Positions 24,892 through 41,483 of a DNA stretch of 64,000 nt are shown here, piece after piece (position 1 is the stretch's first letter; each line of letters begins with the position of its first letter). The stretch comes from Eubacteriales bacterium (GTDB lineage Bacteria; Bacillota; Clostridia; Oscillospirales; CAG-382), in contig JAZNPH010000045.1 of the NCBI GenBank assembly GCA_045589515.1, positions 5,560 to 69,559 on the forward strand, read 5' to 3'. Under the pieces are notes generated by a model. The model was not told the DNA's origin. It was given only the letters and a program-made list of their open reading frames with translations, and did not search any database. Position numbers and translations under genes: made by a program.

Positions 24892-25671
24892 TTACTTCTT
24901 TTTTGAATTGTTTTGCTTCCCTTTGAGATAGGGATTATCGCCATAGCCGTAGCCATAATCGCCCTTACCATACCCATAACGATAGTATTTTTTATAATAC
25001 TTCCCGTATCTATAGTAAGACCCTTTATAAAAACGGCTGTTGTGGATCGTCACTCGGTTCAAAACAGTTCCGAGAACAGGACAACCGCTTTTCTCAAGCT
25101 GCTCCAAAACGTTCTTGGCAAAATGTCTGCTGATGGTATTTGCACAGATTACCAATACAGAACCGTCACAATTCTTCGCGACAACGGCGGCATCAATAAC
25201 GGCCCCCAAGGGAGGAGTATCCACAATGATCATGTCGTATTGAGACTTCAGTTCCTCCAACAATTGAACGAATGCTGAGGAACCGAGAAGTTCTACAGGA
25301 TTGGGCGGCACAACGCCGGCAAACAAAATATCCAAATTGGAAAACTGTGTTTTACAAACGCATTCTTCAAAAGAATTTGTCTTGGAAATAACGCATGTGG
25401 TTCCCAAAGATACATCCTCGCCGAGTAACCGTCTGGCCATAACAGATTTTCTCAGGTCGGTATCTAAGAGCAGAACACGCTGGCCATCCTCCGCAAATGC
25501 TTTTGCGATTCCAAAGGAAACGGTGGTCTTACCATCGCTTTGTAAGCATGAGGTGACCATGATCACTTTATGATCCGCACCGCAAAAGCGAATATTGGTA
25601 CGTAAGGTCTTGAACGCCTCGGAAATTCTGTAATCATCCTGAAAATCAATCTGCACTTGAATTTGTTTCAT
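24892..25671 (-). CDS. CpsD/CapB-family bacterial tyrosine kinase (BY-kinase), cytoplasmic subunit
   Basis: Walker A SCLQSDGKTT, Walker A' LLLDTDLR, Walker B IIVDTPP. The Tyr-cluster C-terminus reads YYRYGKYYKKYYRYGYGKGDYGYGYGDNPY. Confidence 0.88.
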   Translation of the reverse strand: MKQIQVQIDFQDDYRISEAFKTLRTNIRFCGADHKVIMVTSCLQSDGKTTVSFGIAKAFAEDGQRVLLLDTDLRKSVMARRLLGEDVSLGTTCVISKTNSFEECVCKTQFSNLDILFAGVVPPNPVELLGSSAFVQLLEELKSQYDMIIVDTPPLGAVIDAAVVAKNCDGSVLVICANTISRHFAKNVLEQLEKSGCPVLGTVLNRVTIHNSRFYKGSYYRYGKYYKKYYRYGYGKGDYGYGYGDNPYLKGKQNNSKKK

Positions 25672-26525
25672 GACCGAGCGCCCTCCTTTCTTCCCGCGGA
25701 TTTCTTATGTTTCTCCTCAGTGATTTCCGTTTCGGGAATCATCGCCAATACAGGAAGGCCTAAGTATTTTTCCACGTCTTCAGAGGTATTGATCTTGTCG
25801 TCGCGTAAGTACAACAGTACTAAAACACCCGCTACGAGAGCCATACCAACCAAAGCTGCAAGAACAGCCAAGGTATAACGCTTGGAAGATGCAGGCATAT
25901 AAGATAAGCGAGGCTGTTCGTCAATGGCCACCTCTTCCACTCCAAAGAAGTCGGAAAGGCTGACCAGCGATGCTTTCAAAACGGCATTAGTCGCAGCGTA
26001 AGAGAGGATGGGATCGGTAGACTGTACAACCACTCGCAAATAATGCGTATTTTCCACATTCTCGATAGAAGTGGCAGATCGCAAGGTCTTCCAGTCAACG
26101 GATGCACAGATCTGACGAATGTACGATTCAAGCTCTGCCTCGTTTACCTGATTGGTGGCATCGAGATACACAGCTCGAAGCTCCTCCGGCAACAAGTCAA
26201 CTGCTTTGCGGAAATTTTCTTCCGTGGTCACACGGTAAATGTAGTCATCCATAACCATGCCGGTATAACTGATTTCGCTACTTCCGAACTGATTTTCCTT
26301 CTTTTCTACAAGGAAAATACTGCCGTAGGATTCATAGGTATCTACATAAGTTGCATCCGTATATACCATTGCAACACCGCCAAAAAGAATGGCTACCAGC
26401 AGAACCAGCCACCATTTCCCTATGACGGAAAGAAAGATATCCCAAATGGCAACGGTATTTTCTTGTTCGGATGCTTCCGAAGTATAATTCGTTACTTTCT
26501 TATTCTCCACAATACACCAACCCAA
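25668..26525 (-). CDS. Wzz/CapA/YwqC-type transmembrane modulator of the BY-kinase (polysaccharide co-polymerase fold)
   Basis: Two TM helices flank an extracellular domain. The C-terminal activator tail is ...DVEKYLGLPVLAMIPE. A 4-nt overlap links it to the kinase gene. Confidence 0.8.
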   Translation of the reverse strand: MGWCIVENKKVTNYTSEASEQENTVAIWDIFLSVIGKWWLVLLVAILFGGVAMVYTDATYVDTYESYGSIFLVEKKENQFGSSEISYTGMVMDDYIYRVTTEENFRKAVDLLPEELRAVYLDATNQVNEAELESYIRQICASVDWKTLRSATSIENVENTHYLRVVVQSTDPILSYAATNAVLKASLVSLSDFFGVEEVAIDEQPRLSYMPASSKRYTLAVLAALVGMALVAGVLVLLYLRDDKINTSEDVEKYLGLPVLAMIPETEITEEKHKKSAGRKEGARS

Positions 26526-26586: not shown

Positions 26587-28131
26587 CTACTCCTCTTCCC
26601 CGGCGGGAATTGCAACCTTGATCTCAAAAACGCCCTCGGCAAAGAAAGGTACAGCAACGCCTCCGTATTTTTCCGCAATCTCATAAATGATCTGTAACCC
26701 CAAGCCATGACGGGTTCCGTCTTCCTTTGTGGTGTGGAACAAGCCGTTGTCCGCCACCCGGGGCTCTTTAATATAAGGATTGCGACAATCAATACGCATT
26801 ACGTTTTTTTCCATACGGATCATGATCTCAACCCATCGTTGATCCTCGGGCAAAAGGGATACAGCCTCCAAAGCATTTTGAAGGATATTATTCAACTCGC
26901 TGGCAATATCAGTATCCTTGATATCCAGCTTGGACGGCAAAACGGCATGGCAGCGAAAATCAGCGCCAAGCTTTTCGAAGCGCTCCTCGAACATCAAAAG
27001 CAGATAATTTGTCAGAATATGTCTGCAATATTGATCTGCACGAACCGTGGCAATATAATCTGTCATATTACCAAGGTATTCTTCCAACTGCCCATACTCT
27101 CCGTTTTTGCAAAGCATGGCAGCAACATTCAAGGTATTGGAAATATCGTGCTTGATTTTTCGTACAGAATCCTCGTATCTTTGAAGATTCTGCGCGTATT
27201 CCATATTGGCCTCGTCCCTCGAACGCAGCGTTTGCAATTGCAAAGTGTGCTGATGGTACTGCCTAAGGTAATTGACGATGATCAGGACTGAAGTTCCGAA
27301 AAAAACGATCGGATCCAGGACATTGGCACGCACCCAATTTAGCGAAAGATCGAACGTCACCAGTTCGTCCCTTACACGTGCGACGGAAAAACCGTTCCTA
27401 ATCAACACAACTACCGCATGAAAAACGATCACGGTAAAGAAAGATAGTACAAAAGCCGATCCGAAGGAACGCAGGAAGACGTTTTTCGACTTCCATTCCA
27501 GAAGAGAAAACAAAATCCCAAGAGCAAAGCAGAAAATAAACGCGATATCGCTGACAGTACTAAACCAAAATATCGTGCTTGACTCCATATTCCACGCCAA
27601 TGCAAACAGCAAGGCGGATGAAGCAAAACAATTTGCCAACACGAACGGTATATAGAAACGATCGTATCGACGCATATAGTAGATCAGGCACAAAAGTAAC
27701 GGCAGGACAGAGAGCTGCCCAAGTCCATCAGCGACCTGAGAAAACACGTGCGGTCTTGCGGCAGACAGCAAACGTCCGATCTTACCCAAGCAACTCAAAA
27801 CGCCCAACGAGGAACACCAGATCAACAAAACCGGAATTAACTGGAATTTATTCTCCCAGGCATTCATTAGGAAGACCACGCACATACATGCCAGCAGCAA
27901 CAAGAAAAAGCACATGGAGAAGAAATAGCCAATATAGGAATACCATTCCTCAAAAATCACATAGATTTCTTGAGAATCCGCCAACGCTGCCAAATCCCGC
28001 GGCAAACTGTCAAAGGAGAGAATGGTCATAATCTCCACAGCCAGAATAGCGGTAATCCCCAGCACGGAAAGTATAAACAGTCTTCTTTTTCGCCACCAAG
28101 CGGAAAAAGAGATCCTCTCTACCCGTTTCAT
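26587..28131 (-). CDS. AgrC/HPK10-like sensor histidine kinase (multi-TM sensor plus GHKL ATPase)
   Basis: About 6-7 N-terminal TM helices, H-box KIKHDISNTLN, N-box NILQNALEA, G-box HGLGLQI. Overlaps the LytTR regulator gene (ATGA). Confidence 0.8.
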   Translation of the reverse strand: MKRVERISFSAWWRKRRLFILSVLGITAILAVEIMTILSFDSLPRDLAALADSQEIYVIFEEWYSYIGYFFSMCFFLLLLACMCVVFLMNAWENKFQLIPVLLIWCSSLGVLSCLGKIGRLLSAARPHVFSQVADGLGQLSVLPLLLCLIYYMRRYDRFYIPFVLANCFASSALLFALAWNMESSTIFWFSTVSDIAFIFCFALGILFSLLEWKSKNVFLRSFGSAFVLSFFTVIVFHAVVVLIRNGFSVARVRDELVTFDLSLNWVRANVLDPIVFFGTSVLIIVNYLRQYHQHTLQLQTLRSRDEANMEYAQNLQRYEDSVRKIKHDISNTLNVAAMLCKNGEYGQLEEYLGNMTDYIATVRADQYCRHILTNYLLLMFEERFEKLGADFRCHAVLPSKLDIKDTDIASELNNILQNALEAVSLLPEDQRWVEIMIRMEKNVMRIDCRNPYIKEPRVADNGLFHTTKEDGTRHGLGLQIIYEIAEKYGGVAVPFFAEGVFEIKVAIPAGEEE

Positions 28132-28838
28132 AATGCGCCGATCATGGAAGCAAAGCGCTCCTGCGCCTCTTTATACGAGGGCTTGGCGATGGGAATAATG
28201 GACCCGTCGGTCATGATAAAACGATAGTTCTGCAAACGATGCACATAGCTCATATTTACAGCATAGCTTCTGTGACACTTGAAGAAATAGCTCCCCGGGA
28301 GCTCGGGAACAAACTCCGAAAAAACGCCGGAAAAGCGCAAGGTTTCCCCATTGTTCAGCTGCATTACGATGTCATGCCCCATGGATTCCAGATACAAAAT
28401 GCTTTCATATTGAACTACGGTTCTACCCTTGTATTTATCGTTGATCATAAACGTAGGACGCTTTAAATAGAGGGTCAGGATACGATCCAACAACGCGTGG
28501 ACATCCTTCTTTGAAATGGGTTTAGCAAGAAAAGTGATGGGATAAATGGAAAAAGCTTCCAATGCATAGTCGGTATTCGAGGACACAAAAACAATATTGG
28601 TGTCATCGCTTCGCTCTCTCATTTGCTTTGCAAATTCCATCCCGGAATCACTGCGAATCATAATATCCAAGAACAAAAGATCGAACTTCTGCTCCTTCTG
28701 CGCGCGTTCCAACTCAAACAGAGCCGTAAAAGCGTCCACACTGTACGGATAATTACGATATTCCATATATTCGGTGATATATTCCACCATACTATCATTG
28801 AAAACGCGTTCGTCGTCACAGATCGCAATACGGAACAT
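28128..28838 (-). CDS. LytR/AlgR-family response regulator (REC plus LytTR DNA-binding domain)
   Basis: MFRIAICDDE..., phospho-acceptor context LLFLDIMI, and a C-terminal LytTR region (ILYLES...FFKCHRSYAVNMSYV). Confidence 0.9.
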   Translation of the reverse strand: MFRIAICDDERVFNDSMVEYITEYMEYRNYPYSVDAFTALFELERAQKEQKFDLLFLDIMIRSDSGMEFAKQMRERSDDTNIVFVSSNTDYALEAFSIYPITFLAKPISKKDVHALLDRILTLYLKRPTFMINDKYKGRTVVQYESILYLESMGHDIVMQLNNGETLRFSGVFSEFVPELPGSYFFKCHRSYAVNMSYVHRLQNYRFIMTDGSIIPIAKPSYKEAQERFASMIGAL

Positions 28839-28873: not shown

Positions 28874-30124
28874 TTAAATACTTTGCTTCTTACGGTACAA
28901 GAACAAAAGGCGCACCAACAAAGCAACAAGACAAATACCGCCTACAACAGCGATGCAAAGAATGATTCCCGTCCAGTTCCTTTCTTCGGGCTGAAACGGT
29001 GTAATGACCACGTCATTAATCGATTGAGAAGAGGAGGAGTCGATTACATCAGAGGAAGTAACAGAAACCGCTTCTTCGGAAGAGTCGGAAGACACGTTGC
29101 TTTCTTCATACTCGGACACTTCATCAGATTCCTCGATACTCTGTTCGTCGGAAGTGTTATCTATCGAAGAATCATCGGAGAAATCGGGTTCCTCCTCCGA
29201 TGAATCATCCGGCACGGAAAGCTCCTCTTCAGAAGAATCTTCCGGTAAAGACGGCTCTTCCTCGGAAGAATCATCAGAAGTCAAAGACTCATCCCCGGAA
29301 ACAATCTGAGAAATCTCCGGCGGACGCTCGCGGAACAACACGATGGTGTACTCCATTTCCGTACCGTCCTCAGCAGAAACCTTAACAGTAATGGGATTTG
29401 TACCTTCGGCCAAATCCCCTTCCGCCTCAACAATTACCGTTGCTGACGAATCATTTGGAACAGCTTGTATACGGTAGCGGGTATACTCATTGGGGACGGT
29501 TGCGCTATAAAAATCCACCTTGCTTGAAAACGCAGGATTTAACGTGGGGATAAAGCCTCGCTCATCCTCCTGCGCCTCAAAAACCGTGATGTTCAGGGAC
29601 TTTAAAGTAGCATCCGAGGATTTTTTATCAACAAATTTGACGGTAAAAGATGCGTCGTTAACGTCTTCGGTATGGGAGCCGTTCAAAATTTTACCGGAGG
29701 TGAAACGTACGGTGGTGCTACTCCCCAGCTTAGCTGTATCGTATACAAGAAACGTAAGATTCACCATTTTGGTAACAGTTCTTTCGTGGGTCAAAATGAC
29801 AGTTCCTGTATCAGCAAAGAAATGAAACTCTTTTTGATATTTGCCGTTGACAGGCTTCACGCCGGTCAGCTTCAAAACAGAATCATCGTACTCCAATACA
29901 CCCTGATAGCCGTATGCGCCAGAATCCAGCAACAATCTTACGGTAAAAGTATCTCCGGGACAAACTTCCTTTTCGGCAGAAAGCCTCGCTGTATAGCACA
30001 CGCCCACCAATTGGAGCGCAGAAACGCAAGGAATCAAAAGCATAACGGTCAGAAGAAGAGAAGCTACGCGTCTCTTCAAAGGCGTTTGGGTTTTATTTTT
30101 GGTATGATTACGATTCAAAATCAA
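28874..30124 (-). CDS. membrane-anchored surface protein: signal peptide, one cohesin-like domain, cadherin-like beta-sandwich domain, acidic Ser/Asp/Glu stalk, C-terminal TM anchor
   Basis: Cohesin-like pattern GDTFTVRLLLDSGAYGYQGVLEYDDSVLKLTGVKP...TVRFTSGKILNG. Cadherin-like pattern SSDATLKSLNITV...YTIVLFRE. DSSEEE repeats are followed by GIILCIAVVGGICLVALLVRLLFLYRKK. Confidence 0.7.
   Translation of the reverse strand: MILNRNHTKNKTQTPLKRRVASLLLTVMLLIPCVSALQLVGVCYTARLSAEKEVCPGDTFTVRLLLDSGAYGYQGVLEYDDSVLKLTGVKPVNGKYQKEFHFFADTGTVILTHERTVTKMVNLTFLVYDTAKLGSSTTVRFTSGKILNGSHTEDVNDASFTVKFVDKKSSDATLKSLNITVFEAQEDERGFIPTLNPAFSSKVDFYSATVPNEYTRYRIQAVPNDSSATVIVEAEGDLAEGTNPITVKVSAEDGTEMEYTIVLFRERPPEISQIVSGDESLTSDDSSEEEPSLPEDSSEEELSVPDDSSEEEPDFSDDSSIDNTSDEQSIEESDEVSEYEESNVSSDSSEEAVSVTSSDVIDSSSSQSINDVVITPFQPEERNWTGIILCIAVVGGICLVALLVRLLFLYRKKQSI
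29165..29285 (-). repeat. in-frame roughly 30-nt tandem repeats encoding (P/S)xDSSEEE(P/L)x
   Basis: Protein: TSDDSSEEEPSL PEDSSEEELSV PDDSSEEEPDF SDDSS. The + strand shows repeated ...cctcggaagaatcatc... units. Confidence 0.6.
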
Positions 30125-32057
30125 GCACTTCCTCTATAGGTTGTCCAACTTTATCTGCATGAATACGTAAATGACACGTCTCAGAATGTTGGAAATTCCC
30201 GCTCTTAAATGTAATGATAAGGCCTTCCATACGGAAGCACTTAGCACCGGTTTCGCTGGTCACAACCGGCAAGACATACGCGCCGCCAACGGAATCGATC
30301 CCCCGCAAAGAAATACCGGATACTTTTTGGAGATAGGGCATCAAGTTTTCAACAGTAACGTAGGGGCTTCCCATTCGTTGCGAATATGCGCTCAACACAA
30401 ACTGATGCAACGCTTTTGTATCCTCGGGAATGCGATCGCCGAATTCAGCTCGGAAGCTGCGGATCAGTCCGTTTTTCAGATTTGATTTTGCTTCCTCGAT
30501 AGCTGCTTTGCATGCCAAAGCATGGTCTTCTTTCACGGGAAGACTCTTTCGTTTAGCGACACGCTTCCATTGGACAATCAACCAAAGGAGCAATACCAAA
30601 ACGACACCGGCAATGACACCAATCACGATCAAGGTTTTACGATTGATAGTGAACAAAACAAATCCGCCAGAGTTTTCATCGGAGGAATCATCTCCTTCAG
30701 AGCTTTCCTCAGGCGAAGCCTCAGAAGAAGAGTCACCAACAAAACCGGGAATGTCCTCTGACTCCTCACTTTCTTCGCGAGAAGAATCCTCTTCGGAAAC
30801 GTCGGACTCTTCCTCGGAAACACCAGGTTCGGAGGATGTATCTTCGGAAGACTCCTGAGAAACCTCGGGCACTTCTTCACGCAAAAGGTTAATCGTATAC
30901 GTCTTCTCCGTCCCATCTTCGGCACGAACCTTGATGGCGATGATGTTCATCCCCTCATTGAGGCTACCTTCGGTCGCGGAAAGAACTTTTGCAGCAGAAT
31001 CACTGCAAACAGCATCGATCTTAAACGAAGAACACTCGTTGGAAACGGATCCGTTATACGACATAGTGTCGCTTGAAAAGGAGGGCTCCAACGTAAGGGT
31101 TGAACCGTCTCTGTCGTTATCTCCGCTGAATACTTTTACAGATAGGGATTTTAAAGTAGCATCAGCAGACTTCTTTTTTGTAATCTTCACAGTGGCGGAA
31201 GCATCGTTAACAGCAGTTGCTCTTGAGCCGTTTAACGCTTCACCGGAAGTAAAGCTGATCTTGGTATTGCCGACCTTCGCAGAATCCTTTACGGCAAAGG
31301 TAACCTTCAGCATTTTTGTTACACGAGTCGTATGGGTCACAACCGCCAAGCCGGTATCGCTATCGTAATCGGAGTTCTCTTTCAAATCGCCGTTTACAGG
31401 AGCGATCTTGGTCAATTTCAAAACCGAAGAATCATAGGAAAGAACACCGCGGTAACCAAATGCACCGTTGTCTAACGCTAAGCGGAGCGTAAAGGATTGT
31501 CCCTGCTGAGCTTCCGAATCTCCGGTAAGCTTAGCTGTATAGCGAATATCAGGTTCCGCCAAAGAAATATTAAAGGATAGGTCATCCATATATTCGGAAT
31601 CAAAGCCGTTGATCACTTCCCAATCGGTAAAGTATATGGAAGTGGTGCTGCCCGACACGGCATCATCCAAAACGGTATAGGTGATCGTCGCCATCTTTTT
31701 TGATGCCGTAGTATAGTCAACGATCAGCAAACCGGAGCCTTCGTCATAAAAGAAATCCTCTTCCAATTTCTTATCACCAGATTCGACGTTGGCGATCTCT
31801 AAAACAGAAGAATCATATTCTAAATAACCCATGCAACCTTCTGCAGCTTCATCCAGAGTCAAATTGATTGTAAAAGAGCTGCCAATGTATGCCTTGGTAT
31901 CGCCGGTAAGCTGCCCGGTGTAGCAAAGGCCCACCAAAGAGGTGGCACATACAACCGGGACGAGGAGAGCCAGAGACAAAAGGACGGCGAAGACTCTCTT
32001 TTGCAAGAAAGAGTTGATTCTATTTTTCACGGAATACGTATTCAAGGTTTCACACAT
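30108..32057 (-). CDS. bitopic membrane protein: signal peptide, two cohesin-like domains, cadherin-like domain, acidic stalk, TM helix, 152-aa cytoplasmic domain of unknown family
   Basis: Two copies of the ...(F/Y)G(C/Y)(M/R)G(Y/V)L(E/S)YDSSVL(E/K)... cohesin-like pattern, then SADATLKSLSVKV...YTINLLRE. TM helix LIVIGVIAGVVLVLLLWLIVQW is followed by KRVAKRK... through DFES. Paralogous to the downstream 416-aa gene, with a 17-nt overlap. Confidence 0.7.
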   Translation of the reverse strand: MCETLNTYSVKNRINSFLQKRVFAVLLSLALLVPVVCATSLVGLCYTGQLTGDTKAYIGSSFTINLTLDEAAEGCMGYLEYDSSVLEIANVESGDKKLEEDFFYDEGSGLLIVDYTTASKKMATITYTVLDDAVSGSTTSIYFTDWEVINGFDSEYMDDLSFNISLAEPDIRYTAKLTGDSEAQQGQSFTLRLALDNGAFGYRGVLSYDSSVLKLTKIAPVNGDLKENSDYDSDTGLAVVTHTTRVTKMLKVTFAVKDSAKVGNTKISFTSGEALNGSRATAVNDASATVKITKKKSADATLKSLSVKVFSGDNDRDGSTLTLEPSFSSDTMSYNGSVSNECSSFKIDAVCSDSAAKVLSATEGSLNEGMNIIAIKVRAEDGTEKTYTINLLREEVPEVSQESSEDTSSEPGVSEEESDVSEEDSSREESEESEDIPGFVGDSSSEASPEESSEGDDSSDENSGGFVLFTINRKTLIVIGVIAGVVLVLLLWLIVQWKRVAKRKSLPVKEDHALACKAAIEEAKSNLKNGLIRSFRAEFGDRIPEDTKALHQFVLSAYSQRMGSPYVTVENLMPYLQKVSGISLRGIDSVGGAYVLPVVTSETGAKCFRMEGLIITFKSGNFQHSETCHLRIHADKVGQPIEEVLDFES

Positions 32058-32073
32058 CCTTTATTTTTAATGA

Positions 32074-32592
32074 TTACGGGGCCTTCTCAACCACCGCTAA
32101 TTTCACGCGGAAAAGCTTGGCAAACTCCCGGTCGCCTATGGAATAAGAGATGCTAAGAAGGTTGGTGTCGGGCACCATAGTGATTTCAAAGGCGGTAATT
32201 TTGCTTTGAAGAAGCTCTGAAGATGCTCCATCCTCCGCCTTGAAAATGGTTAACGTTCCATCAACTGACCAAACCAACGATTCCCCCGTGGGAACATCTT
32301 CAAAAAAGTCTTCCGCCGTTTTAGTCCGAGAATAAAAGGAAATTACCTTGGAGCCGTTCTGTTGGTCGCGCTCATCAAGCAAAATGAAACAATCTTCATT
32401 TTCGAAAAGCAATTCTAACCGCTTATTCAGCAAATCGGCATCCTGTGCTGCAGAAGTACCGGTAACGATCATATTGTTAGAACGGATAGAGAACATCAGC
32501 AAAGTAAAAGCGGAAATGCCAACGATGGAAAGAATGGCGATAGCGCTGATCAACTCGATTAAGGTGACGCCTTTGTTAAGATTACGCTTCAT
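32074..32592 (-). CDS. type IV pilin-like protein (prepilin N-terminal cleavage/methylation domain)
   Basis: MKRNLNKG|VTLIELISAIAILSIVG: G-1, E+5 and a hydrophobic helix. Start at 32592 follows AGGAGG and forms an ATGA overlap with the upstream gene. Confidence 0.8.
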   Translation of the reverse strand: MKRNLNKGVTLIELISAIAILSIVGISAFTLLMFSIRSNNMIVTGTSAAQDADLLNKRLELLFENEDCFILLDERDQQNGSKVISFYSRTKTAEDFFEDVPTGESLVWSVDGTLTIFKAEDGASSELLQSKITAFEITMVPDTNLLSISYSIGDREFAKLFRVKLAVVEKAP

Positions 32593-33023
32593 TGGGACAC
32601 CTCCTGCCAAACAGACGAATCCCAACTAAAATACTTAGAAGCATTCCCCTTAGAGATCGTAATGATATAGGTTTCCCCCTCCGGTTTCTCGACAGTTACA
32701 GAAACGCCGTCAAAAAGATAATCTTCAGGATATTCTCCATCCAAGCCGCTCGAGCAACTGTCAAAAAATGCAACAAGAAGATTCTTTCCATCAGTCTCAA
32801 GTAGTAAATTGTCAATAGAAGTGCCTTGGTTAAGAGCGTTGTGGATCAGATCAGCGCAGAGCTCTACCTCGGCAAGGTGCTGTTGATTTTCCTCTGCCTG
32901 AATAGCGTTTCCATAATGGTTGAAAGAAAGAAAAATCGTCCAAGCCAGCAAAATGCTTGCAATAGCAAGTACAGCAACAACTGTCACAAGGCCTGCGCCA
33001 CGGTTTGCATTTCGTTTAACCAT
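32589..33023 (-). CDS. atypical minor pilin-like protein (PilX/ComGG-like N-terminus without Glu5)
   Basis: MVKRNANRGAGLVTVVAVLAIASILLAW has a basic leader and a hydrophobic helix but no E+5. It sits between two canonical pilin genes with overlapping stops and starts. Confidence 0.5.
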   Translation of the reverse strand: MVKRNANRGAGLVTVVAVLAIASILLAWTIFLSFNHYGNAIQAEENQQHLAEVELCADLIHNALNQGTSIDNLLLETDGKNLLVAFFDSCSSGLDGEYPEDYLFDGVSVTVEKPEGETYIITISKGNASKYFSWDSSVWQEVSQ

Positions 33024-33486
33024 AAGACAACAACCCCTTTCTCTCGATTACAAGGTCGTCGCCGCTTACAACATAAGTCACCTTAATGTCAACGCGACAG
33101 TAAGGTTTCACTAAGTTCGTTAGGGTTAATTCAAAGTGGTAACGGTTGTAAGAAAATTCCAACTTGTCACCGCTAAATTCGCTGGGAAGCCCCAGTATAT
33201 CAAGAGGTTCGGAAGCATATTTGACGAACTCGGCCAAAAACGCTGCTTTCAACTTGCCGAGATACTCAGCTTCATTCTTCGGATCGGCATCCTCATCCAT
33301 CTTAACCTGCATCTCTTCCAACAACATCATCACGTCATCTGCGGCGTCATTCATGGCAGACAAATGATAGGCCTTTGCATCTGTTTTTGCGGCCAATGCA
33401 AAAGAGGAAACGATCGGAAGAGAAATAATTCCCAAGATCGCTACAGCGACCAGAAGCTCTACAAAGCTAAAGCCTTTATTTTTCAT
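33016..33486 (-). CDS. type IV pilin (candidate major subunit of this locus)
   Basis: MKNKG|FSFVELLVAVAILGIISLPIV is a canonical class III signal with G-1/F+1/E+5. It is the first pilin gene after pilO. Confidence 0.8.
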   Translation of the reverse strand: MKNKGFSFVELLVAVAILGIISLPIVSSFALAAKTDAKAYHLSAMNDAADDVMMLLEEMQVKMDEDADPKNEAEYLGKLKAAFLAEFVKYASEPLDILGLPSEFSGDKLEFSYNRYHFELTLTNLVKPYCRVDIKVTYVVSGDDLVIERKGLLSYG

Positions 33487-33523: not shown

Positions 33524-34153
33524 TTATCCGAGAATGTTATCTGTTCCCACTTGGATACCGGGGATCTCGGGAGCCTCGTACTCATCCAGACCGGTAACGT
33601 AGTAACGGCGCAGAATCATAGTACCGGCAACAGTATCGGTTTGAGCATCGTAAGCGATTGTCAAGGAAACCAAAGACATGGGATTGTCTTCGTTCTCCAC
33701 CAAGTAGGTGATCAGCTCCTTGAATTCCTTGTATGGCAGGGAATAGCTGAAGGGGAAGGTCTTTTCATTCAAAACCAGCGAGCCGGTAGAGAATAATTTG
33801 GAATCTGCGCCAAATACGATCTGGGTCTGGGTTTGTTTGGTAATGCGTTCCAGATCGCGAATGAACAGGATCTGATCCTCTTCTAAAATCGCACCGGGCA
33901 TATCAACGGATTCCAGCAACGCCTGGGTTTGAAGTTTTACCTTAACAGCCTCTTCGGCGTAGTAAGACTCCTGAGAAAGATTGCCCTTGGCGGTAGCAAT
34001 CTTCAATTCCAGCAGGTCGATATTCTTTTCTGCATTTTCCTTTTCGGTTACGGCAGTGAGATAAAGATTATTGTAGCAATAGTACAAGCCGACAACGCCC
34101 ACAATCAAAAGGAGCAGGGCAACCATCCATTTTCTGATATAAACTTTTTTCAT
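33524..34153 (-). CDS. pilO: PilO-like type IV pilus alignment protein
   Basis: Short basic N-terminus, one TM helix (WMVALLLLIVGVVGLYY), a coiled-coil segment, then an approximately 120-aa globular part. Position directly after pilMN. Call rests on topology and synteny. Confidence 0.6.
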   Translation of the reverse strand: MKKVYIRKWMVALLLLIVGVVGLYYCYNNLYLTAVTEKENAEKNIDLLELKIATAKGNLSQESYYAEEAVKVKLQTQALLESVDMPGAILEEDQILFIRDLERITKQTQTQIVFGADSKLFSTGSLVLNEKTFPFSYSLPYKEFKELITYLVENEDNPMSLVSLTIAYDAQTDTVAGTMILRRYYVTGLDEYEAPEIPGIQVGTDNILG

Positions 34154-34171: not shown

Positions 34172-36427
34172 TCAAGATTGCGACGATTCGTCGGAGGTTT
34201 CCCCGGAGATCTCGTCAGAAACGTCCGGAAGCTCTTCAAATTCACCGGTATACTGCAATGCTACAGAGAAGGAAAGAATCTCGGTATTCACAATCTGCTG
34301 AGGTAATTTAATACCGCTTCCCTCTTCCGAATACTCGGTACGGACATGCTTAATGAAAATATTATCCCAAGTGTAGCCGAAGGATCCCATTTTATCGAGG
34401 TATCCGTTGTAATCCTCTTCGGTGATATCGAAATCAGACAAGGGGAAGACATTGTTGTTGACGTAGGTAAAGCTGTCAAGCACAGAAAGATCTTCCGTCT
34501 GGTTCGTATTCAAATATTTCACCATGGCATCCATAAGCTCATCTGCACGCTGTACCAAAGGATTATCGGCATACATAGGCTTCATAAGCTCAATCATGGA
34601 AAGAACGGTTTCGTCAACGGTATACTCCAAATACGTATGAGGAATATAGTTGGAGTACACATCAGCGGGTGAAAGCACACCGCTTTGCAGCATCGGAATC
34701 AACGCATCCAGCTGTGCCTGCGTATAGTCCTCATACTTGGAGGCAAGGTTCTCGCGAGACAAGTGCCCTTCGGAATCCAGCAAAGCATCGATATTATACC
34801 CGGTCACTTGAGAATCCTGGGTAATGGAGATCGCAGAAGGCGTTCCCATGGTGACAGAAGCGCAGTTGCGGAGCGTTTGGATCACATACGCAGCTTCCTC
34901 TCTGGTGCTGACGCGAATGTTCATGACTACGCCCTTGTCACTGACAGAAATACCGAACACGCGGAACTGAGAGGGCATTTTACGCTCTAACTCTTCAATG
35001 AACTGAACGAAATGATCGTTGTAAGTCTCCATATAATCGTCGATAGAGCCGATGCCCTTTTGGAGAGACTCATACAAGCTGACAGCATTTTGGTATGCGT
35101 TCTTCTCTTTGGTGGTATCGCCAAGAGCAATCAACTCAGCATTCAGCATGGATTCATGAGAGACGACAAGATCTCTATCCGCATCCGACATATATACCAA
35201 AGCACCGGAAATGGCACCGCAGATCAAGAAGCAAACGATACCAATGGCAAGGAGCGTATTCTGCACAGAACGATCATTGAAGACATCAAGCGCAGAAACA
35301 GTATTCGACTTCTGTCGGTTTGCCAAGTTAATAGGATGAATGCAGGCGCCGATAGGCGCTGCAAACTCAGCAAAGGAAAACGCAAAGGAATCACCGGCAT
35401 TGGCATATTTTTTTTCAAGCTCGCTCTCCAACGGAACCACAGGGAGATCCAGCTCGTGAGCCAATAGATCATTAAAGCCACCGTACAACAGGGAGCCGCC
35501 TACCAAATAGACCTCGATAGAACTGGTGGACGTAACAGAGAGATAATACTCTACGCTACGGCGAATAGAAACGATCAAAGAACGTAGTGCTCTGGTGCAG
35601 CGAGCCTTGTCGCCGGCATAAGCAGGATCATCCCCTCGCTCCAAGGCGGTATAGCACAGGTCGTCATCGCGATCACGCAGAAGCCGATCATAAGAAATCG
35701 GTTCATTTTCGTCGATAAGATCGGGAAGTAATTGAGCCATTAAGGCACTGGAGCCCACCGACAGCATTCTTTGGAGGCAGATGGTTCCGCCTTTCACAAA
35801 CGTCAACACGGCATGCTCAGAATAAACGGAAACGAGCAACTGCGTTTTTTCGGTATTGATTGTCTCCTTAACCAGATCTCTCGCGGAAACCTTCACAGCC
35901 TGGAAAACACCGTTGCCACCAAAGTCAATGGCCACAATATCCAATCCGACGTAGTTTGCAAATTGGTAATATGAACGAATGATATCTCTGGGAACGGCGC
36001 ACACCAAAAGCTTATGCATACGCTTGCCGTCCTCATCAACTTTTCCCAAACTGTTATAAATCAACTTGTAGTCGGAAATGTTAACAGGAAAATAGTCGGA
36101 GGCGTTTTGATACAGCAAAGTCTCGATCTTGGATTCCTTTACCAAAGGAATCGTAATCTCGCGGTTGATGATACGGGAGGAAGAGATCGAGAATGCAGCA
36201 CGGTCAGCAGAAACACCTACACGAGCAAGCGTTTCCTTGAAGGACTGACGGAATTTCTCGCTTTCCTGCACCAATCCATCTTCCGAAATAAGGTTCAAAG
36301 GGGTGGGTACCGTAAACGCATGGTAAATCTTAGGAGCTTTGGATTTAAAATCCATCTCCACCACACGAGTCACACCATTATCCAATTCAATGCCGAGTAC
36401 CTTCGGCGCACCAATTGTAATATTCAT
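34172..36427 (-). CDS. pilM: PilM-PilN fusion protein with a long extra C-terminal extracytoplasmic extension
   Basis: Residues 1-365 are actin-like PilM (VLGIELDNGVTRVVEM..., DIVAIDFGG, VYLVGGS). TM at 391-413 (LLAIGIVCFLICGAISGALVYM), PilN-like region to about 535, then 216 further residues ending in an acidic tail. Confidence 0.78.
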   Translation of the reverse strand: MNITIGAPKVLGIELDNGVTRVVEMDFKSKAPKIYHAFTVPTPLNLISEDGLVQESEKFRQSFKETLARVGVSADRAAFSISSSRIINREITIPLVKESKIETLLYQNASDYFPVNISDYKLIYNSLGKVDEDGKRMHKLLVCAVPRDIIRSYYQFANYVGLDIVAIDFGGNGVFQAVKVSARDLVKETINTEKTQLLVSVYSEHAVLTFVKGGTICLQRMLSVGSSALMAQLLPDLIDENEPISYDRLLRDRDDDLCYTALERGDDPAYAGDKARCTRALRSLIVSIRRSVEYYLSVTSTSSIEVYLVGGSLLYGGFNDLLAHELDLPVVPLESELEKKYANAGDSFAFSFAEFAAPIGACIHPINLANRQKSNTVSALDVFNDRSVQNTLLAIGIVCFLICGAISGALVYMSDADRDLVVSHESMLNAELIALGDTTKEKNAYQNAVSLYESLQKGIGSIDDYMETYNDHFVQFIEELERKMPSQFRVFGISVSDKGVVMNIRVSTREEAAYVIQTLRNCASVTMGTPSAISITQDSQVTGYNIDALLDSEGHLSRENLASKYEDYTQAQLDALIPMLQSGVLSPADVYSNYIPHTYLEYTVDETVLSMIELMKPMYADNPLVQRADELMDAMVKYLNTNQTEDLSVLDSFTYVNNNVFPLSDFDITEEDYNGYLDKMGSFGYTWDNIFIKHVRTEYSEEGSGIKLPQQIVNTEILSFSVALQYTGEFEELPDVSDEISGETSDESSQS

Positions 36428-36449: not shown

Positions 36450-37223
36450 TTATACGAGAAGTGAAATATACCATTCCACAAATGGATCACACAGGAACAA
36501 GGAAAGAAGGACACCTAAAGAAAGATAGGGACCCATGGCAAGAACGTGGTCTGCATTTGAGCGCTTCATCCGCACAGAATGTATCAATGAGCCAAGAATA
36601 CATCCTGCAAGAAATGCGAAGCATATCTTTTGCCAGCCTATCAAAAGGCCGCAGGCAGCCATAAGCTTGACATCTCCCCCGCCGATCGCTCTTCCTTTGG
36701 AAACCAAAAAGATCAAGAGCAAGGGAAGGCTGATGCAAAGAAGACCGATCAAAGAATCAAGCCAAGAAGACAAGTCTGTCAGCAGACGAACAACGCCAAG
36801 ACATCCGATGAAGATGTTGAAGCCCACAGGAATCTCATACGTACGAAAATCAATCACGCTCAAGGCTAACAGGGCAGAACACATGAGCGCCAACAACAAC
36901 GCATGAAGCAGAGGAATCATCTCTGCACCATCCGCGGGTAAATACCATGCAAAAACGAAAAACCAACAGACTGCATTCGCGCCTTCTACCAAAGGATATT
37001 GAGGTGAGAGACGCGCTTTGCAGTAGCGGCACTTCCCTCCCAGAGACAACCAGCTTACCACAGGAAATAAGTCGTACCAAGCTAAGCGATGTCCACAGGA
37101 CATACAGTGAGAAGGCGTTTTAACAAACTCTTCTTTTTTCGGAATGCGGAAAATCAGCACGTTCAGAAAACTACCGATCAATGCTCCGAACACAGCCGCA
37201 ATAGCGGCAATCAAATATCTCAT
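36450..37223 (-). CDS. pilD: prepilin peptidase/N-methyltransferase (A24 family)
   Basis: FLNVLIFRIP, zinc motif CMSCGH...CRYCK, active-site context GGGDVKLMAACG. Confidence 0.92.
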   Translation of the reverse strand: MRYLIAAIAAVFGALIGSFLNVLIFRIPKKEEFVKTPSHCMSCGHRLAWYDLFPVVSWLSLGGKCRYCKARLSPQYPLVEGANAVCWFFVFAWYLPADGAEMIPLLHALLLALMCSALLALSVIDFRTYEIPVGFNIFIGCLGVVRLLTDLSSWLDSLIGLLCISLPLLLIFLVSKGRAIGGGDVKLMAACGLLIGWQKICFAFLAGCILGSLIHSVRMKRSNADHVLAMGPYLSLGVLLSLFLCDPFVEWYISLLV

Positions 37224-37231: not shown

Positions 37232-38452
37232 TCATGCCGCACTGCCGAGCGCATCGTACATGGAGAACATGGGGAGCAAAATAGAACATACAACGATACC
37301 GACGATAGCAGCCATAACCAAAATAATAGCGGGTTCAAGAGCGGCGAGCAATGCCTTGGTTGCAGCCTCTACCTCCTCGTCGTAATAATCAGCGAGTCGA
37401 TCGAGCATCTCCTCCAGGTCGCCGGTTTCCTCGCCAATACCGGTCATGTGGTAAACCATGGGAGGGAACAAGCCATTGGACTCCAAAGGTACGGAAAGGT
37501 TCGCACCGGCAGCCGCTTCGTCACGGCAGAAAAGAACCGCCTCTTTGAAGTAGATATTATTCATATTTTTCGCAGTGATCTCCAAAGAATCGAGCATAGG
37601 AAGACCGGAGGAGGTCAACGTGCTCAAAGTTCTTGCAAAATTAGCGCTTGCACTCTTGACTGTCATATCGCCAAACAGCGGGAGCTTCATCACAATTTTT
37701 CCAAAGAAGTGTCTCCCTTTGTCGGTTTTCGAAAACATAACCAGCAGGCAAACCACGGCAAATATGCCCAGGAACAACTTCCACCAATGGGCAACCATCC
37801 AGTCGGAGAAGCCCATGACGATCTTTGTAATGAAAGGAAGATCCATGCCCATATCTTCAAAAACACCCGTAAAAGCAGGGATAACCATGACCATCATAAT
37901 CGCGACAACTACAACCACGACAACCAAAACGATCGTAGGATAAACCATAGCTTTTTTGACTGCACCCTTTACACGGGAACCCTTTTCGAAGTGATCCGCA
38001 AGACGGGAAAACGCCTTTTCCAAATTACCGGATGCTTCTCCCGCAGCAACCATGTTGATCATCATCGCAGGAAAAATATCGGGAGAATGAAGACGCATAG
38101 CGTCAGAAAGAGATTCACCCTTTTCGATCTGTGCATGAGTATCCAAAATCGCTTTCTTCAGACGAACATTTTGTGTCTGAGAAGCCAGCATGGTCAATGC
38201 TGCAAAAATAGGAATGCCGGCGCTGACAATACTCACAAACTGACGGCAGAAAACCCCCAGATCACGAGCTTTGACACGATTCAAAAACGGAAGATCAATA
38301 TCCTTTGTCAAAAGCCCCTGTTCCTTCAGCTCGATGGCGGTCAGATCACTGCGCTTCAAAAATGCGCGAGCTTGCTCCAGATCTTCCGCCTCGATACTGC
38401 CTTTTTTAATTTTACCAAGCGGGTTTACCGCAACATAACCGTAAGAAGGCAT
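37232..38452 (-). CDS. pilC: type IV pilus platform protein PilC (T2SS-F family)
   Basis: 406 aa with two T2SSF repeats and three TM helices. N-terminus YGYVAVNPLGKIKKGSIEAEDLEQARAFLK is typical. Confidence 0.92.
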   Translation of the reverse strand: MPSYGYVAVNPLGKIKKGSIEAEDLEQARAFLKRSDLTAIELKEQGLLTKDIDLPFLNRVKARDLGVFCRQFVSIVSAGIPIFAALTMLASQTQNVRLKKAILDTHAQIEKGESLSDAMRLHSPDIFPAMMINMVAAGEASGNLEKAFSRLADHFEKGSRVKGAVKKAMVYPTIVLVVVVVVVAIMMVMVIPAFTGVFEDMGMDLPFITKIVMGFSDWMVAHWWKLFLGIFAVVCLLVMFSKTDKGRHFFGKIVMKLPLFGDMTVKSASANFARTLSTLTSSGLPMLDSLEITAKNMNNIYFKEAVLFCRDEAAAGANLSVPLESNGLFPPMVYHMTGIGEETGDLEEMLDRLADYYDEEVEAATKALLAALEPAIILVMAAIVGIVVCSILLPMFSMYDALGSAA

Positions 38453-38473: not shown

Positions 38474-39535
38474 TCAAATGTTCATGATCTTTTTTTGTAA
38501 CGTAATGGGGTCGTGGGCAAAATCTACTGCCGTATTCAGGGAAATACGGCGCTGAAGGTACAACTCAGACAAATGATCATCCATTGTTTGCATCCCAAGT
38601 TTTTTACCGGTTTGAATATTGGAAGTGATCTGGAAGGTCTTATTCTCACGGATCAAATTACGAATGGCATTGGTTGCAACCATCACTTCGAAAGCCGCCT
38701 CTCGCTTACCATCTACGGTAGGCACCAGACTCTGACATAGAATGCATTCGATGGCATTGGCAAACTGGATGCGAATCTGCTGTTGTTGTTCCTCAGGGAA
38801 CGCGTCGATTACACGGTCCACGGTGGCCGCCGCACTGTTGGTATGTAAGGTAGCCAAAACCAAGTGGCCTGTCTCCGCCGCGGTTATGGCAGTGGAAATG
38901 GTTTCAAGGTCACGCATTTCTCCCACCAAAATAACATCGGGATCCTGACGCAAAGCGGCACGAAGAGCTGCGGAAAATGTTTTTGTATCCACGCCGATCT
39001 CTCTCTGATGGATGATAGACTGGATGTGAGGATGCACAAACTCTACCGGGTCTTCCAAGGTAACGATATGCTTTTTATAATTGCTGTTCAAGTAATTGAT
39101 CACAGCAGCAAGCGTCGTGGACTTACCGCTACCCGTAGGCCCTGTAACTAAGATCAACCCGCGCTTTTTGCAGGATGACTTCACCACCGCATCGGGGACC
39201 TTTGTTTCCTCGATGGTAGGCATTTTAACAGGAAGCAAACGCAAAGCCAAGGCGTAATTGCCTCGTTCATGATAAATGTTGCATCTTAATCGGGATAGCC
39301 CCTCAAAAGAATACGCAAAGTCCACTTCCCCGTCTCTTTCCAAAACGGAGCGGGTACGAGCATCCATGATCTCCTCCGCGCAAGAGATCACGTCTCTCTC
39401 GGTCAAGATCTCATCGTTCCAAAAAATCAGTTCACCGGAACAGCGGAACTGGATTGGTCTCCCCACAGAAATATGAATATCCGAAGCTTTTGCTTCCAAA
39501 GCACCTAAAATGGCGCCCCTCATTCGTTCAGCCAT
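38474..39535 (-). CDS. pilT: twitching-motility retraction ATPase PilT
   Basis: 353 aa. ASDIHI, Walker A GPTGSGKSTT, Asp box, Walker B ILVGEMRD, His box ATLHTNSA. Confidence 0.93.
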   Translation of the reverse strand: MAERMRGAILGALEAKASDIHISVGRPIQFRCSGELIFWNDEILTERDVISCAEEIMDARTRSVLERDGEVDFAYSFEGLSRLRCNIYHERGNYALALRLLPVKMPTIEETKVPDAVVKSSCKKRGLILVTGPTGSGKSTTLAAVINYLNSNYKKHIVTLEDPVEFVHPHIQSIIHQREIGVDTKTFSAALRAALRQDPDVILVGEMRDLETISTAITAAETGHLVLATLHTNSAAATVDRVIDAFPEEQQQQIRIQFANAIECILCQSLVPTVDGKREAAFEVMVATNAIRNLIRENKTFQITSNIQTGKKLGMQTMDDHLSELYLQRRISLNTAVDFAHDPITLQKKIMNI

Positions 39536-39580: not shown

Positions 39581-41269
39581 TCAATCCTCGAAGGAAACGT
39601 TCAAGGATTCTCTGAAAGAGGTAATCCCCTCCAAAGCAAGTCGGATAGCACTTGCGCGAAGCGTGCTCATTCCGTTTGCAACGGCAGCCTTCTTAATGGT
39701 GTTGGCATTTTCCTTGCGGGAGATCATATATTTGATTTCCGGCGTAACTTCAAGGATCTCGTATACACCGATACGACCTGTAAAACCGGTCTGGTTGCAT
39801 CTCTGACAACCGACGGATTCGTACAACTCCACCTTACTGTCTGCAGGAAGCCCCATAAAGGCAAGCTCGTTGGGTTCCGCAAATTTCTTCTTCTTGCAGT
39901 GAGGGCACAAGCGGCGAACAAGTCGCTGTGCGATGATGCCCACCACAGAGTCTGCGATCAAATAACTGTCCACACCCATATCCAAAAGACGGGTAATGGA
40001 GCTCGCGGAGCTGTTGGTATGCAAGGTGCTGACCACCAAGTGACCTGTAATGGACGCTTGTACGGCGATCATTGCGGTCTCTGTATCACGAATCTCACCA
40101 ATCATGATAATATCCGGGTCCTGACGCAAAATGGAACGCAGTGCGTTAGCGAAGGTCATATCTGCCTTGGTGTTGACCTGAACCTGGTTGATGCCGTCGA
40201 TATTGGCCTCCACAGGGTCCTCGACGGTGATAATATTGGTGCTCTCGGCATTCAATTCACTCAAAGCGGTGTACAGAGTAGTGGACTTACCACTACCCGT
40301 AGGCCCGGTAATCAAAACGATGCCGTGGGGATGAGCCAGCAGATGGTCAAACTTTACAAGCTCGTCATCCGAGAAGCCAAGCAATCTTTTATCTCTGGTA
40401 AAATCTTGCTTTACCTGCAAACGAAGCACACACTTTTCGCCAAATACTGTGGGAAGGCAGGAAACACGGATGTCGTATTCCCGGTGATCCACAATGTAGG
40501 TAGCACGACCATCTTGAGGCTTACGCTTTTCCGAAATATCCATACCGCTGATGATCTTGATACGGGCAATAATGGCGGAAGCCAGCTGAGAAGCATACTT
40601 CACACGATTATACAGCACACCGTCGATTCGATAGCGAACACGAACGGATTCAGCAAGAGCTTCCACATGAATATCCGAAGCTCGCTGACGGGCAGCTTGC
40701 TCGATCATGGAGTTGACGATAACGACAATAGGAGAATTATTGATCTCATCTACCCTGTCATCCTCGGCCTCTTGGTTCATTTTTTCCCGCTCTTTGGTAT
40801 ACTGCTCAGCTACAGATAGGGTAGCGTTCCTGCCATAATAACGGTCAATCGCCGACATGATGTCCGTAGGCGTGGATACGTAAGGTTCAACGTGCATTCC
40901 CGTCACGATAGAAATATCGTCGATGGCGGTAATATTCATGGGATCAGAGATGGCTACGTACAACGTATTGGTGCCATCCTGAGCATACGCAAAAGGCATC
41001 ACACGATGACGGCGAAGAACAGAATACTCAACGAGAGACTGGATATCTTCTGCAATCTGCAAACCATTCAACACCACCATGGGTGCATCGTACTTCGCAG
41101 CGATCGCTTCCGCAAGCTGGGTTTCGTTTGCCAACCCACGCTCCAAAATGGTATCGTATTCGCTTTTCCCCGTTTCGGAAACCAACGCAAGAACCTCGTT
41201 TGCCGCTTCTGCGGATACAACGAGATGGTCCTGCAATATTTCGATCAAATGTTTTTTCTGGCTGTTCAT
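39581..41269 (-). CDS. pilB: type IV pilus assembly ATPase PilB (GspE family)
   Basis: 562 aa. N-terminal GSPII_E_N-like domain, Walker A GPTGSGKSTT, IMIGEIRD, tetracysteine CPHCK...CQRC. Confidence 0.93.
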   Translation of the reverse strand: MNSQKKHLIEILQDHLVVSAEAANEVLALVSETGKSEYDTILERGLANETQLAEAIAAKYDAPMVVLNGLQIAEDIQSLVEYSVLRRHRVMPFAYAQDGTNTLYVAISDPMNITAIDDISIVTGMHVEPYVSTPTDIMSAIDRYYGRNATLSVAEQYTKEREKMNQEAEDDRVDEINNSPIVVIVNSMIEQAARQRASDIHVEALAESVRVRYRIDGVLYNRVKYASQLASAIIARIKIISGMDISEKRKPQDGRATYIVDHREYDIRVSCLPTVFGEKCVLRLQVKQDFTRDKRLLGFSDDELVKFDHLLAHPHGIVLITGPTGSGKSTTLYTALSELNAESTNIITVEDPVEANIDGINQVQVNTKADMTFANALRSILRQDPDIIMIGEIRDTETAMIAVQASITGHLVVSTLHTNSSASSITRLLDMGVDSYLIADSVVGIIAQRLVRRLCPHCKKKKFAEPNELAFMGLPADSKVELYESVGCQRCNQTGFTGRIGVYEILEVTPEIKYMISRKENANTIKKAAVANGMSTLRASAIRLALEGITSFRESLNVSFED

Positions 41270-41338: not shown

Positions 41339-41367
41339 ATTATATCCGAACAGATTCCCAAAGTCAA
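41339..41367 (-). promoter_or_regulatory. consensus sigma-A promoter upstream of pilB
   Basis: Minus strand: TTGACT (41367-41362), 17-nt spacer, TATAAT (41344-41339), about 70 nt upstream of the pilB ATG. AGAGGAG Shine-Dalgarno precedes the ATG. Confidence 0.6.
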
Positions 41368-41463: not shown

Positions 41464-41483
41464 CTTGCAATTTGACATTGAAA

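Follow-up and report, generated by a model that had tools for sequence, protein, structure and literature searches.

Two cohesin-bearing membrane proteins encoded at the distal end of a type IV pilus operon: candidate surface docking anchors in uncultured gut Clostridia

We have analysed a 64 kb stretch of DNA (64,000 nt; positions 5,560 to 69,559 of contig JAZNPH010000045.1, assembly GCA_045589515.1, Eubacteriales bacterium), called the window from here on, in which two neighbouring genes encode membrane-tethered proteins of 416 aa (A416) and 649 aa (B649) with one and two cohesin modules, respectively, directly after the pilin genes of a type IV pilus operon. The explanation that we favour, with a probability of about 0.55, is that both are wall-spanning surface docking anchors that became part of the pilus operon and are expressed together with the pilus.

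The original prediction, made from the nucleotide sequence, described here two tandem paralogous genes. Both open reading frames (ORFs) were confirmed, the motifs quoted for them (GDTFTVRLLLDSGAYGYQGVLEYDDSVLKLTGVKP, S.DATLKSL and YTI.L.RE) are present in the proteins, and A416 and B649 align by BLASTP with 52% identity over 237 aa (E=5e-73). The part of B649 that is 52% identical to A416 consists of its second cohesin (Coh2) and the Cadherin-like domain that follows, and its first cohesin (Coh1) is 36% identical to the A416 cohesin over 164 aa. The closest database proteins to B649 are P0001 (98% identical) and P0002 (65%). The genes and their modules, including the transmembrane (TM) helices, are laid out as follows in window coordinates:

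28874-30124, minus strand: gene A416 (416 aa, ORF), encoding a signal sequence, one cohesin, a Cadherin-like domain, an acidic stalk, a TM helix and a short basic tail
29630-30007, minus strand: A416 cohesin module, residues 40-165 (Pfam Cohesin 22.0 bits, E=2e-4, sole match)
29327-29623, minus strand: A416 Cadherin-like beta-sandwich, residues ~168-266 (PF12733 35.7 bits; AlphaFold2 model all-beta here)
28985-29323, minus strand: A416 acidic Ser/Asp/Glu stalk, residues ~268-380 (composition per 50-residue block)
28901-28972, minus strand: A416 TM helix, residues ~385-408, then RKKQSI (Kyte-Doolittle 19-residue window peak 3.02)
30108-32057, minus strand: gene B649 (649 aa, ORF), encoding a signal sequence, Coh1, Coh2, a Cadherin-like domain, an acidic stalk, a TM helix and a cytoplasmic domain
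31557-31931, minus strand: B649 Coh1, residues 43-167 (Pfam Cohesin 32.0 bits)
31188-31556, minus strand: B649 Coh2, residues 168-290 (Pfam Cohesin 24.8 bits)
30873-31175, minus strand: B649 Cadherin-like beta-sandwich, residues ~295-395 (PF12733 33.8 bits)
30663-30869, minus strand: B649 acidic stalk, residues ~397-465 (composition)
30567-30635, minus strand: B649 TM helix, residues ~475-497, then the positive-inside KRVAKRK (Kyte-Doolittle peak 3.28)
30111-30566, minus strand: B649 cytoplasmic orphan domain, residues 498-649, ending PIEEVLDFES

The three modules are predicted to adopt a genuine cohesin fold, by sequence profiles and, for A416, by structural modelling as well, and the cohesin-like character proposed for one module of A416 and two of B649 was borne out by Pfam, by the Protein Data Bank (PDB) profile search and by AlphaFold2 with Foldseek. 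Scanned module by module, Pfam Cohesin (PF00963, cut-off 24.1 bits) is the top match for all three, with the A416 module falling just under the cut-off, and the whole of B649 scores 39.9 bits over two stretches. The profile searches for cohesin and Cadherin-like domains, which had been suggested as a check, thus upheld the fold. A profile of the family matched the cohesin chains 5nrm/5nrk in the PDB (E=1.8e-4), and the AlphaFold2 model of A416 residues 40-275, with a mean predicted local distance difference test score (pLDDT) of 92.2, retrieved exclusively cohesins at ranks 1-10 of a Foldseek search against the PDB (E 2e-9 to 7e-6). The top matches were the non-cellulosomal cohesins of Clostridium perfringens (2w1n, 2vo8, 2jh2), followed by the cellulosomal 5nrm, 5lxv and 5n5p (A. 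cellulolyticus and R. flavefaciens cohesins), with target-normalised template modelling scores of 0.65-0.74 for single-module chains and 0.44-0.53 for the longer 2w1n and 5lxv.

Both proteins start with an N-terminal Sec-type hydrophobic segment and have a single TM helix in their C-terminal part, as seen by hydropathy, and the stalks between are acidic and Ser-rich (up to 21 D/E and 15 S per 50 residues). The signal peptide, Cadherin-like sandwich, acidic stalk and own TM helix that had been proposed for each therefore stand, as PF12733 is above its cut-off (24.2 bits) in both and hydropathy and composition agree. Orthologues of A416 are 58-73% identical, and its stalk differs among them in length and sequence. 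The original description had each protein ending in the TM helix, which is correct for A416, with its short basic tail, but not for B649, where about 150 residues (KRVAKRK ... PIEEVLDFES) continue on the cytoplasmic side. No Pfam match to SLH (the S-layer homology domain) or Gram_pos_anchor was found in A416 or B649, which have the TM helix instead. We also considered lipoprotein anchoring through a conserved Cys (LVGLC, LVGVC) and rejected it, since position -1 is Leu/Val, there is no lipobox, and the Cys is missing in P0002. A role as pilus subunits was likewise rejected, because the proteins have no prepilin signal (by regular expression and Pfam N_methyl) and are tethered to the membrane.

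That the two genes come directly after the pilin genes had been remarked upon, and the third pilin-like gene does adjoin B649 in a tightly packed operon, where intergenic gaps in the row of pilus genes are 16-35 nt or the genes overlap. The order, from the proximal end to beyond A416, is the following:

41438-41466: strong terminator, just ahead of the promoter-like match upstream of pilB
41339-41367, minus strand: best sigma-70-like promoter match, TTGACT-17-TATAAT (11/12 consensus positions; consensus match only), upstream of pilB
39581-41269, minus strand: PilB (T2SSE on the L001 orthologue)
38474-39535, minus strand: PilT (T2SSE on the L001 orthologue)
37232-38452, minus strand: PilC platform (T2SSF on the L001 orthologue)
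36450-37223, minus strand: PilD prepilin peptidase (Peptidase_A24 on the L001 orthologue)
34172-36427, minus strand: PilM-PilN fusion (PilMN) with a long extracytoplasmic extension (PilM_2 and TIGR01175 matches)
33524-34153, minus strand: PilO-like gene, directly upstream of the pilins
33016-33486, minus strand: first pilin-like gene (156 aa; Pfam N_methyl 30.6 bits; KG|FSFVE; weak ComGE-like NCBIfam match)
32589-33023, minus strand: second pilin-like gene (144 aa, ORF), atypical, without Glu5, its position kept in relatives (37-66% identical)
32074-32592, minus strand: third pilin-like gene (Pfam N_methyl; prepilin motif KG|VTLIE by regular expression), directly upstream of B649
28128-28838, minus strand: LytTR response regulator (Pfam domains), directly downstream of A416
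26587-28131, minus strand: multi-TM GHKL histidine kinase (Pfam domains), after the response regulator
25668-26525, minus strand: Wzz-like gene, after the histidine kinase
24892-25671, minus strand: CpsD-like gene (tyrosine-kinase ATPase), after the Wzz-like gene

PilB, PilT, PilC and PilD were identified from the window translations together with the precomputed Pfam matches of L001 orthologues that are 86-94% identical. A416 starts with TTG, overlaps the end of B649 by 17 nt and has a Shine-Dalgarno sequence (AGAGGAAG) just ahead, and the two genes appear to be translationally coupled. Other promoter-like sites inside the operon are weaker, at or near the minimum score of the scan. Given these tight gaps and overlaps, the best promoter-like match upstream of pilB and the same gene order in ten of ten related loci, A416 and B649 seem to form the distal part of the type IV pilus operon, and their co-transcription with it is probable.

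The pilus-linked loci compared were L001, L002, L008, L009, L010, L087, L089, L091, L092 and, in partial view, L090 (n=10). All ten keep the order of three pilins, B649 or its equivalent, A416, response regulator and kinase. A homologue of the third pilin precedes the gene with the TM helix and cytoplasmic domain wherever the directly upstream sequence is present, even in the distant L090, and the regulator and kinase are syntenic wherever sequence downstream of A416 is available. These loci fall into two lineages, with L087 and L089 markedly further removed from the window's sequences (PilC 81%, response regulator 61% and kinase 52-56% identical). Within the closer lineage, identity to the window is mostly 86-94% for PilB, PilT, PilC and PilD (80% for PilD in L010), 90-95% for the response regulator, ~80% for PilMN and PilO, 75-78% for the kinase, 67-77% for the cytoplasmic domain, ~60% for the cohesin ectodomains and 37-66% for the pilins. 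The cohesin ectodomains, predicted to be the exposed parts, thus seem to evolve fast, as pilins do. The number of cohesins per locus goes from one to three, and the pilin set is constant. A midpoint-rooted neighbour-joining (NJ) tree, which has no bootstrap support, groups the cohesins of A416, B649 and close relatives on a branch of their own. Literature searches found no report linking cohesins with type IV pilus operons; co-mentions of cohesins and pili concern Ruminococcus adhesion to cellulose via pili and cellulosomes, as separate systems.

The docking function that we propose comes from the wider family to which the two proteins belong. Distant homologues share the signal peptide, the cohesin, one to four Cadherin-like domains, a linker and the C-terminal TM helix, and the first four of them with contigs examined were all (4/4) directly beside a gene for a Dockerin_1 protein. 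We have extended this to a survey of 79 loci in species-representative genomes, using custom hidden Markov models (HMMs) for cohesin and dockerin, in which 40 non-pilus ORFs had the family's cohesin. A dockerin ORF was adjacent to 37 of the 40 (34 immediately upstream on the same strand, one downstream and two divergent), and the other three had none. Pfam confirmed Dockerin_1 in eight of these partners, with cargo domains that include SH3_3, a papain-like protease with a lectin, N-acetylglucosaminidase, BspA leucine-rich repeats and a transglutaminase-like domain; none of the eight contains a cellulase domain. With 37 of 40 genes directly beside a dockerin gene, the family would represent a non-cellulosomal cassette of "dockerin cargo + membrane cohesin anchor", and we infer from this gene adjacency that its usual job is to hold the dockerin-tagged secreted protein encoded next door on the cell. 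The cassette was found in metagenome-assembled genomes (MAGs) of uncultured gut Bacilli, Oscillospiraceae and Lachnospiraceae (loci L003-L086; e.g., L011, 3781-9876 + 9899-11158, or L025, 5470-7260 + 7277-8752). Since the gene pair is common in these uncultured gut groups and has proteases, peptidoglycan hydrolases and leucine-rich-repeat proteins as cargo instead of cellulases, gut Firmicutes would be using cohesin-dockerin pairing as a general means of surface display. No publication on the cassette as such was found in literature searches.

A416 and B649 have the architecture of the cassette anchors, with homologous cohesin and Cadherin-like modules (25-33% identical), but not the adjacent Dockerin_1 gene. 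Their upstream neighbours are the pilin gene (for B649) and B649 (for A416), in which the dockerin HMM finds nothing, and for lack of an adjacent dockerin we regard them as anchor homologues and not as members of the cassette. A Dockerin_1 gene is adjacent in 37 of 40 cassette ORFs and in none of the ten pilus-linked loci, and the cassettes are not beside pil genes, the TM-cytoplasmic protein or the LytTR regulator and kinase. In four loci (L022, L024, L049 and L057) a Firmicutes-type locus is on contigs binned as Bacteroides helcogenes or Muribaculaceae MAGs. Three of them (L022, L024, L057) have a dockerin ORF beside a Cadherin-like/TM protein and L049 has no dockerin, the family's cohesin being detected only in L057; mis-binning is probable here, and horizontal transfer possible.

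The absence of a dockerin from the window, also part of the original prediction, was confirmed in several ways. A Ca-loop regular expression found none among the proteins of the 64 kb, and an HMM built from 38 real dockerins gave nothing better than E=4.7. With filters off and E-values up to 10, and with the pilins, PilO and the PilMN extension included, it returned only a spurious single-loop match in a 1862-aa ORF. The window's two giant ORFs (1862 aa and 1513 aa) contain no dockerin by Pfam and gave no BLASTP match to the 1490-aa dockerin partner of a relative, and there is no dockerin-bearing glycoside hydrolase in the window. Nor did the custom HMM find a dockerin within 10 kb of nine pilus-linked related loci. 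Nevertheless, a dockerin-free window of 64 kb says little about the rest of the genome, since 37 of 40 relatives adjoin a Dockerin_1 gene and TM-anchored cohesin proteins have already been described in ruminococci (see below).

The cytoplasmic domain of B649 provides a further link to this operon. In L009, L010, L087 and L089 the position of B649 is taken by a separate protein of 182-262 aa that is little more than the TM helix and this domain; the L001 and L008 form (a 533-aa orthologue) joins the domain to one cohesin and a Cadherin-like domain, and the form in the window joins it to two cohesins and a Cadherin-like domain. In the NJ tree Coh2 is closer to the A416 type, and Coh1 groups with the single cohesin of the 533-aa orthologue (the L001 form) and appears to be its orthologue. 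Searched exhaustively with HMMER, 1.84 billion representatives yielded nine proteins at E<=0.001. Eight had E<=1e-10 and were all from this operon context, where context was visible; the ninth, P0042 (E=6e-5), is marginal and unrelated. A word-based search gave six proteins, again all from the same context. Among relatives the domain is 34-77% identical, with many invariant residues in its C-terminal part, and it has no Pfam or PDB sequence-profile match. The AlphaFold2 model of the domain is of low quality (pLDDT 57) and supports no conclusion; Foldseek returned nothing for it with E below 0.3. The pattern of fission and fusion across loci argues that the surface ectodomain and the cytoplasmic domain may work together.

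Put together, A416 and B649 would be bitopic, Sec-exported proteins with the N-terminus outside and the C-terminus inside, a topology supported by the hydrophobic segments, the acidic stalk and the positive-inside residues. The C-terminal TM helix would hold each of them in the cytoplasmic membrane, the acidic and probably disordered stalk (~70-110 residues) would let the folded part reach across the cell wall, the sandwich of the Cadherin-like domain would serve as a spacer, and the distal cohesins (one in A416, two in B649) would offer protein-docking faces at the cell surface. They may descend from the widespread non-cellulosomal "membrane cohesin anchors" of gut Firmicutes, a type IV pilus operon having captured one anchor gene at its distal end, next to a protein of TM helix plus cytoplasmic domain that is specific to this lineage. 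In the window's species this TM-cytoplasmic protein would then have been fused to a duplicated cohesin/Cadherin ectodomain, giving B649, and the dockerin gene of the cassette would have been lost in the pilus-linked lineage. The cytoplasmic domain probably couples the anchors to a cytoplasmic partner. As for the ligand, we would roughly give a dockerin protein encoded elsewhere somewhat less than an even chance, a pilus component about one chance in four or slightly better, and leave the rest to direct adhesion.

Several observations weigh against surface docking anchors. Neither the window nor the 10 kb to either side of any pilus-linked relative has a dockerin, and the docking inference is based on a single feature, the adjacent dockerin, which the pilus-linked clade lacks. 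With only ~25-33% identity to those of the cassettes and their own branch in the unbootstrapped tree, the pilus-linked cohesins may bind with another specificity, or may no longer bind dockerins at all. That the proteins are surface-exposed, that their signal peptides are cleaved and that the genes are co-transcribed are predictions from sequence. Finally, the synteny is known only in a narrow group of uncultured relatives, and inheritance, rather than selection, could explain part of it.

One alternative, rather unlikely in our view, is that these are pilus accessory proteins whose cohesins bind a component of the type IV pilus (the three minor-type pilins or the PilMN extension) and not dockerins; with the TM-cytoplasmic protein they would be part of an envelope complex of Gram-positive pili or of a surface-sensing relay, and the three operon-encoded minor-type pilins would likely be a tip or priming complex. 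The place right after the pilins is invariant in all pilus-linked loci of both lineages, and a ligand among the pilus components would fit this invariant synteny and the loss of the adjacent dockerin. The apparent translational coupling of A416 and B649 and the ectodomain fused to a cytoplasmic domain that is conserved only in this operon context point the same way, as does the divergence of the ectodomains at a pilin-like rate (~60% against 37-66%, and 86-94% for PilB/T/C/D, in the same species pairs), although any surface protein would be expected to diverge fast. However, we know of no case of a cohesin binding a pilin, proteins without a prepilin signal and tethered to the membrane cannot travel with the fibre, and the cohesin count varies from locus to locus while the pilin set does not. 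A more specific version, in which a repurposed cohesin binds the minor-pilin tip complex or the PilMN extension and, via the orphan TM-cytoplasmic partner, links the pilus to its motor or to the LytTR system, we consider unlikely; if true, it would be the first cohesin-based type IV pilus accessory and a new envelope component of Gram-positive pili.

It is also improbable that A416 and B649 are stand-alone adhesins, whose cohesin and Cadherin-like sandwiches would attach directly, without a bacterial protein partner, to a surface ligand of host, dietary or bacterial origin; their place in the operon would then serve only to co-regulate two adhesion devices. Gram-positive surface adhesins have a similar build, with sandwich domains on long acidic stalks, the ectodomain sequences evolve fast, and surface proteins of gut Firmicutes commonly contain PF12733 domains; yet 37 of 40 relatives have the same type of cohesin next to a dockerin gene, as in a protein-protein docking device, and the conserved cytoplasmic domain would be left unexplained. 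That domain could instead belong to a sensor input, the ectodomain and TM-cytoplasmic domain signalling contact or ligand to the LytTR regulator and GHKL kinase and so controlling the pilus or exopolysaccharide. The regulator and kinase come directly after A416 wherever downstream sequence is available, Wzz- and CpsD-like genes are next in several such loci, and the domain is conserved (34-77% identity) with many invariant C-terminal residues. Nonetheless, no match to a known signalling domain was obtained for it, the kinase already possesses a multi-TM sensor region, and the cytoplasmic tail of A416, the member present in all loci, is just six residues long; we regard this possibility as very improbable. 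We therefore keep wall-spanning docking anchors as the preferred explanation.

Some features of the neighbourhood deserve mention in their own right. Only three small pilin-like proteins are encoded in the operon (32074-33486, minus strand), two with canonical prepilin motifs and one atypical; the prepilin motif is restricted to the 156-aa and 183-aa ORFs by Pfam N_methyl and regular expression. No major pilin gene is evident in the 64 kb, which suggests that the fibre subunit is probably encoded elsewhere or that a short pseudopilus is built. PilMN residues 420-751 (34175-35170, minus strand) comprise ~330 extracytoplasmic residues after a TM helix with no Pfam match, ending in an acidic Ser/Asp/Glu tail similar in composition to the stalks of the cohesin proteins. 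The LytTR regulator and the HPK10-like GHKL kinase (26587-28838, minus strand) form an Agr/Com-type pair with a multi-TM sensor, and no obvious peptide-pheromone or AgrB-like gene is nearby. The Wzz-like and CpsD-like genes are syntenic in several relatives (including L009, L087 and L089) and absent in L001 and L008, and hint at a joint control of pilus and exopolysaccharide. Beyond the operon, a 5'-nucleotidase (46142-48019, minus strand; Metallophos + 5_nucleotid_C) has a weak match to the LPXTG anchor profile (18.2 bits, cut-off 20 bits); if genuine, the organism would also have sortase-dependent surface display, the cohesin proteins using TM helices instead. A cluster of giant secreted proteins of unassigned function (48163-59739, minus strand) has no cohesin or dockerin; its 1862-aa member matches only the Listeria-Bacteroides repeat (Flg_new), the 1513-aa member has a signal peptide and no Pfam match, and two small ORFs between them (53767-54609 and 54606-55097) have no matches.

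The closest known counterparts are the TM-anchored single-cohesin or anchoring scaffoldins reported in ruminococci such as R. difficilis, Ruminococcus sp. HUN007, JE7B6 and others (PMC13463774). By architecture as described, they resemble A416 and B649 in having one or few cohesins and a C-terminal TM helix and not SLH or sortase anchoring, and both kinds come from gut or rumen Clostridia. The ruminococcal proteins are described as belonging to cellulosome- or amylosome-like systems, and their genomes encode many dockerin enzymes (PMC13463774). A416 and B649, in contrast, are encoded in a type IV pilus operon, the 64 kb around them are free of dockerins, and they have a Cadherin-like domain and, in B649, the orphan cytoplasmic domain. 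A different parallel is given by the C. perfringens glycoside hydrolase/toxin cohesins (2w1n, 2vo8, 2jh2), which are the best structural matches of the A416 model, at only 11-18% sequence identity, and serve non-cellulosic protein-protein assembly. They are modules inside large secreted enzymes and bind the dockerins of other enzymes, whereas A416 and B649 are themselves small membrane anchors that carry their cohesins. Cellulosomal anchoring scaffoldins (C. thermocellum SdbA/OlpB, R. flavefaciens ScaE, A. cellulolyticus ScaB/ScaC) likewise present a cohesin on a cell-bound protein via a long linker, and A. cellulolyticus ScaB and ScaC were matched in the PDB profile and Foldseek searches. Such scaffoldins are anchored by SLH or sortase (LPXTG) and their partners are scaffoldin dockerins carrying cellulases, or dockerin glycoside hydrolases; A416 and B649 have the TM helix, there are no such genes in the window, and they are thus not anchoring scaffoldins of this kind.

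On the pilus side, it is to our knowledge poorly understood how type IV pili pass through and engage with the thick Gram-positive wall, and few accessory components are known beyond PilMNO. A conserved, operon-encoded and probably wall-spanning pair, one with a dedicated cytoplasmic domain, would be a candidate Gram-positive pilus accessory, although the pilus-linked variant is confined to a few species of uncultured gut Clostridia. The nearest analogues in gene position are the PilY1/PilC-type tip adhesins, non-pilin proteins encoded with the minor pilins in the fimU-pilVWXY1E operons of Gram-negative bacteria. PilY1 has no relation to A416 and B649 in sequence or fold and is carried on the fibre without a C-terminal TM anchor, but in both cases the genes are located immediately after the minor-type pilin genes of a pilus operon.

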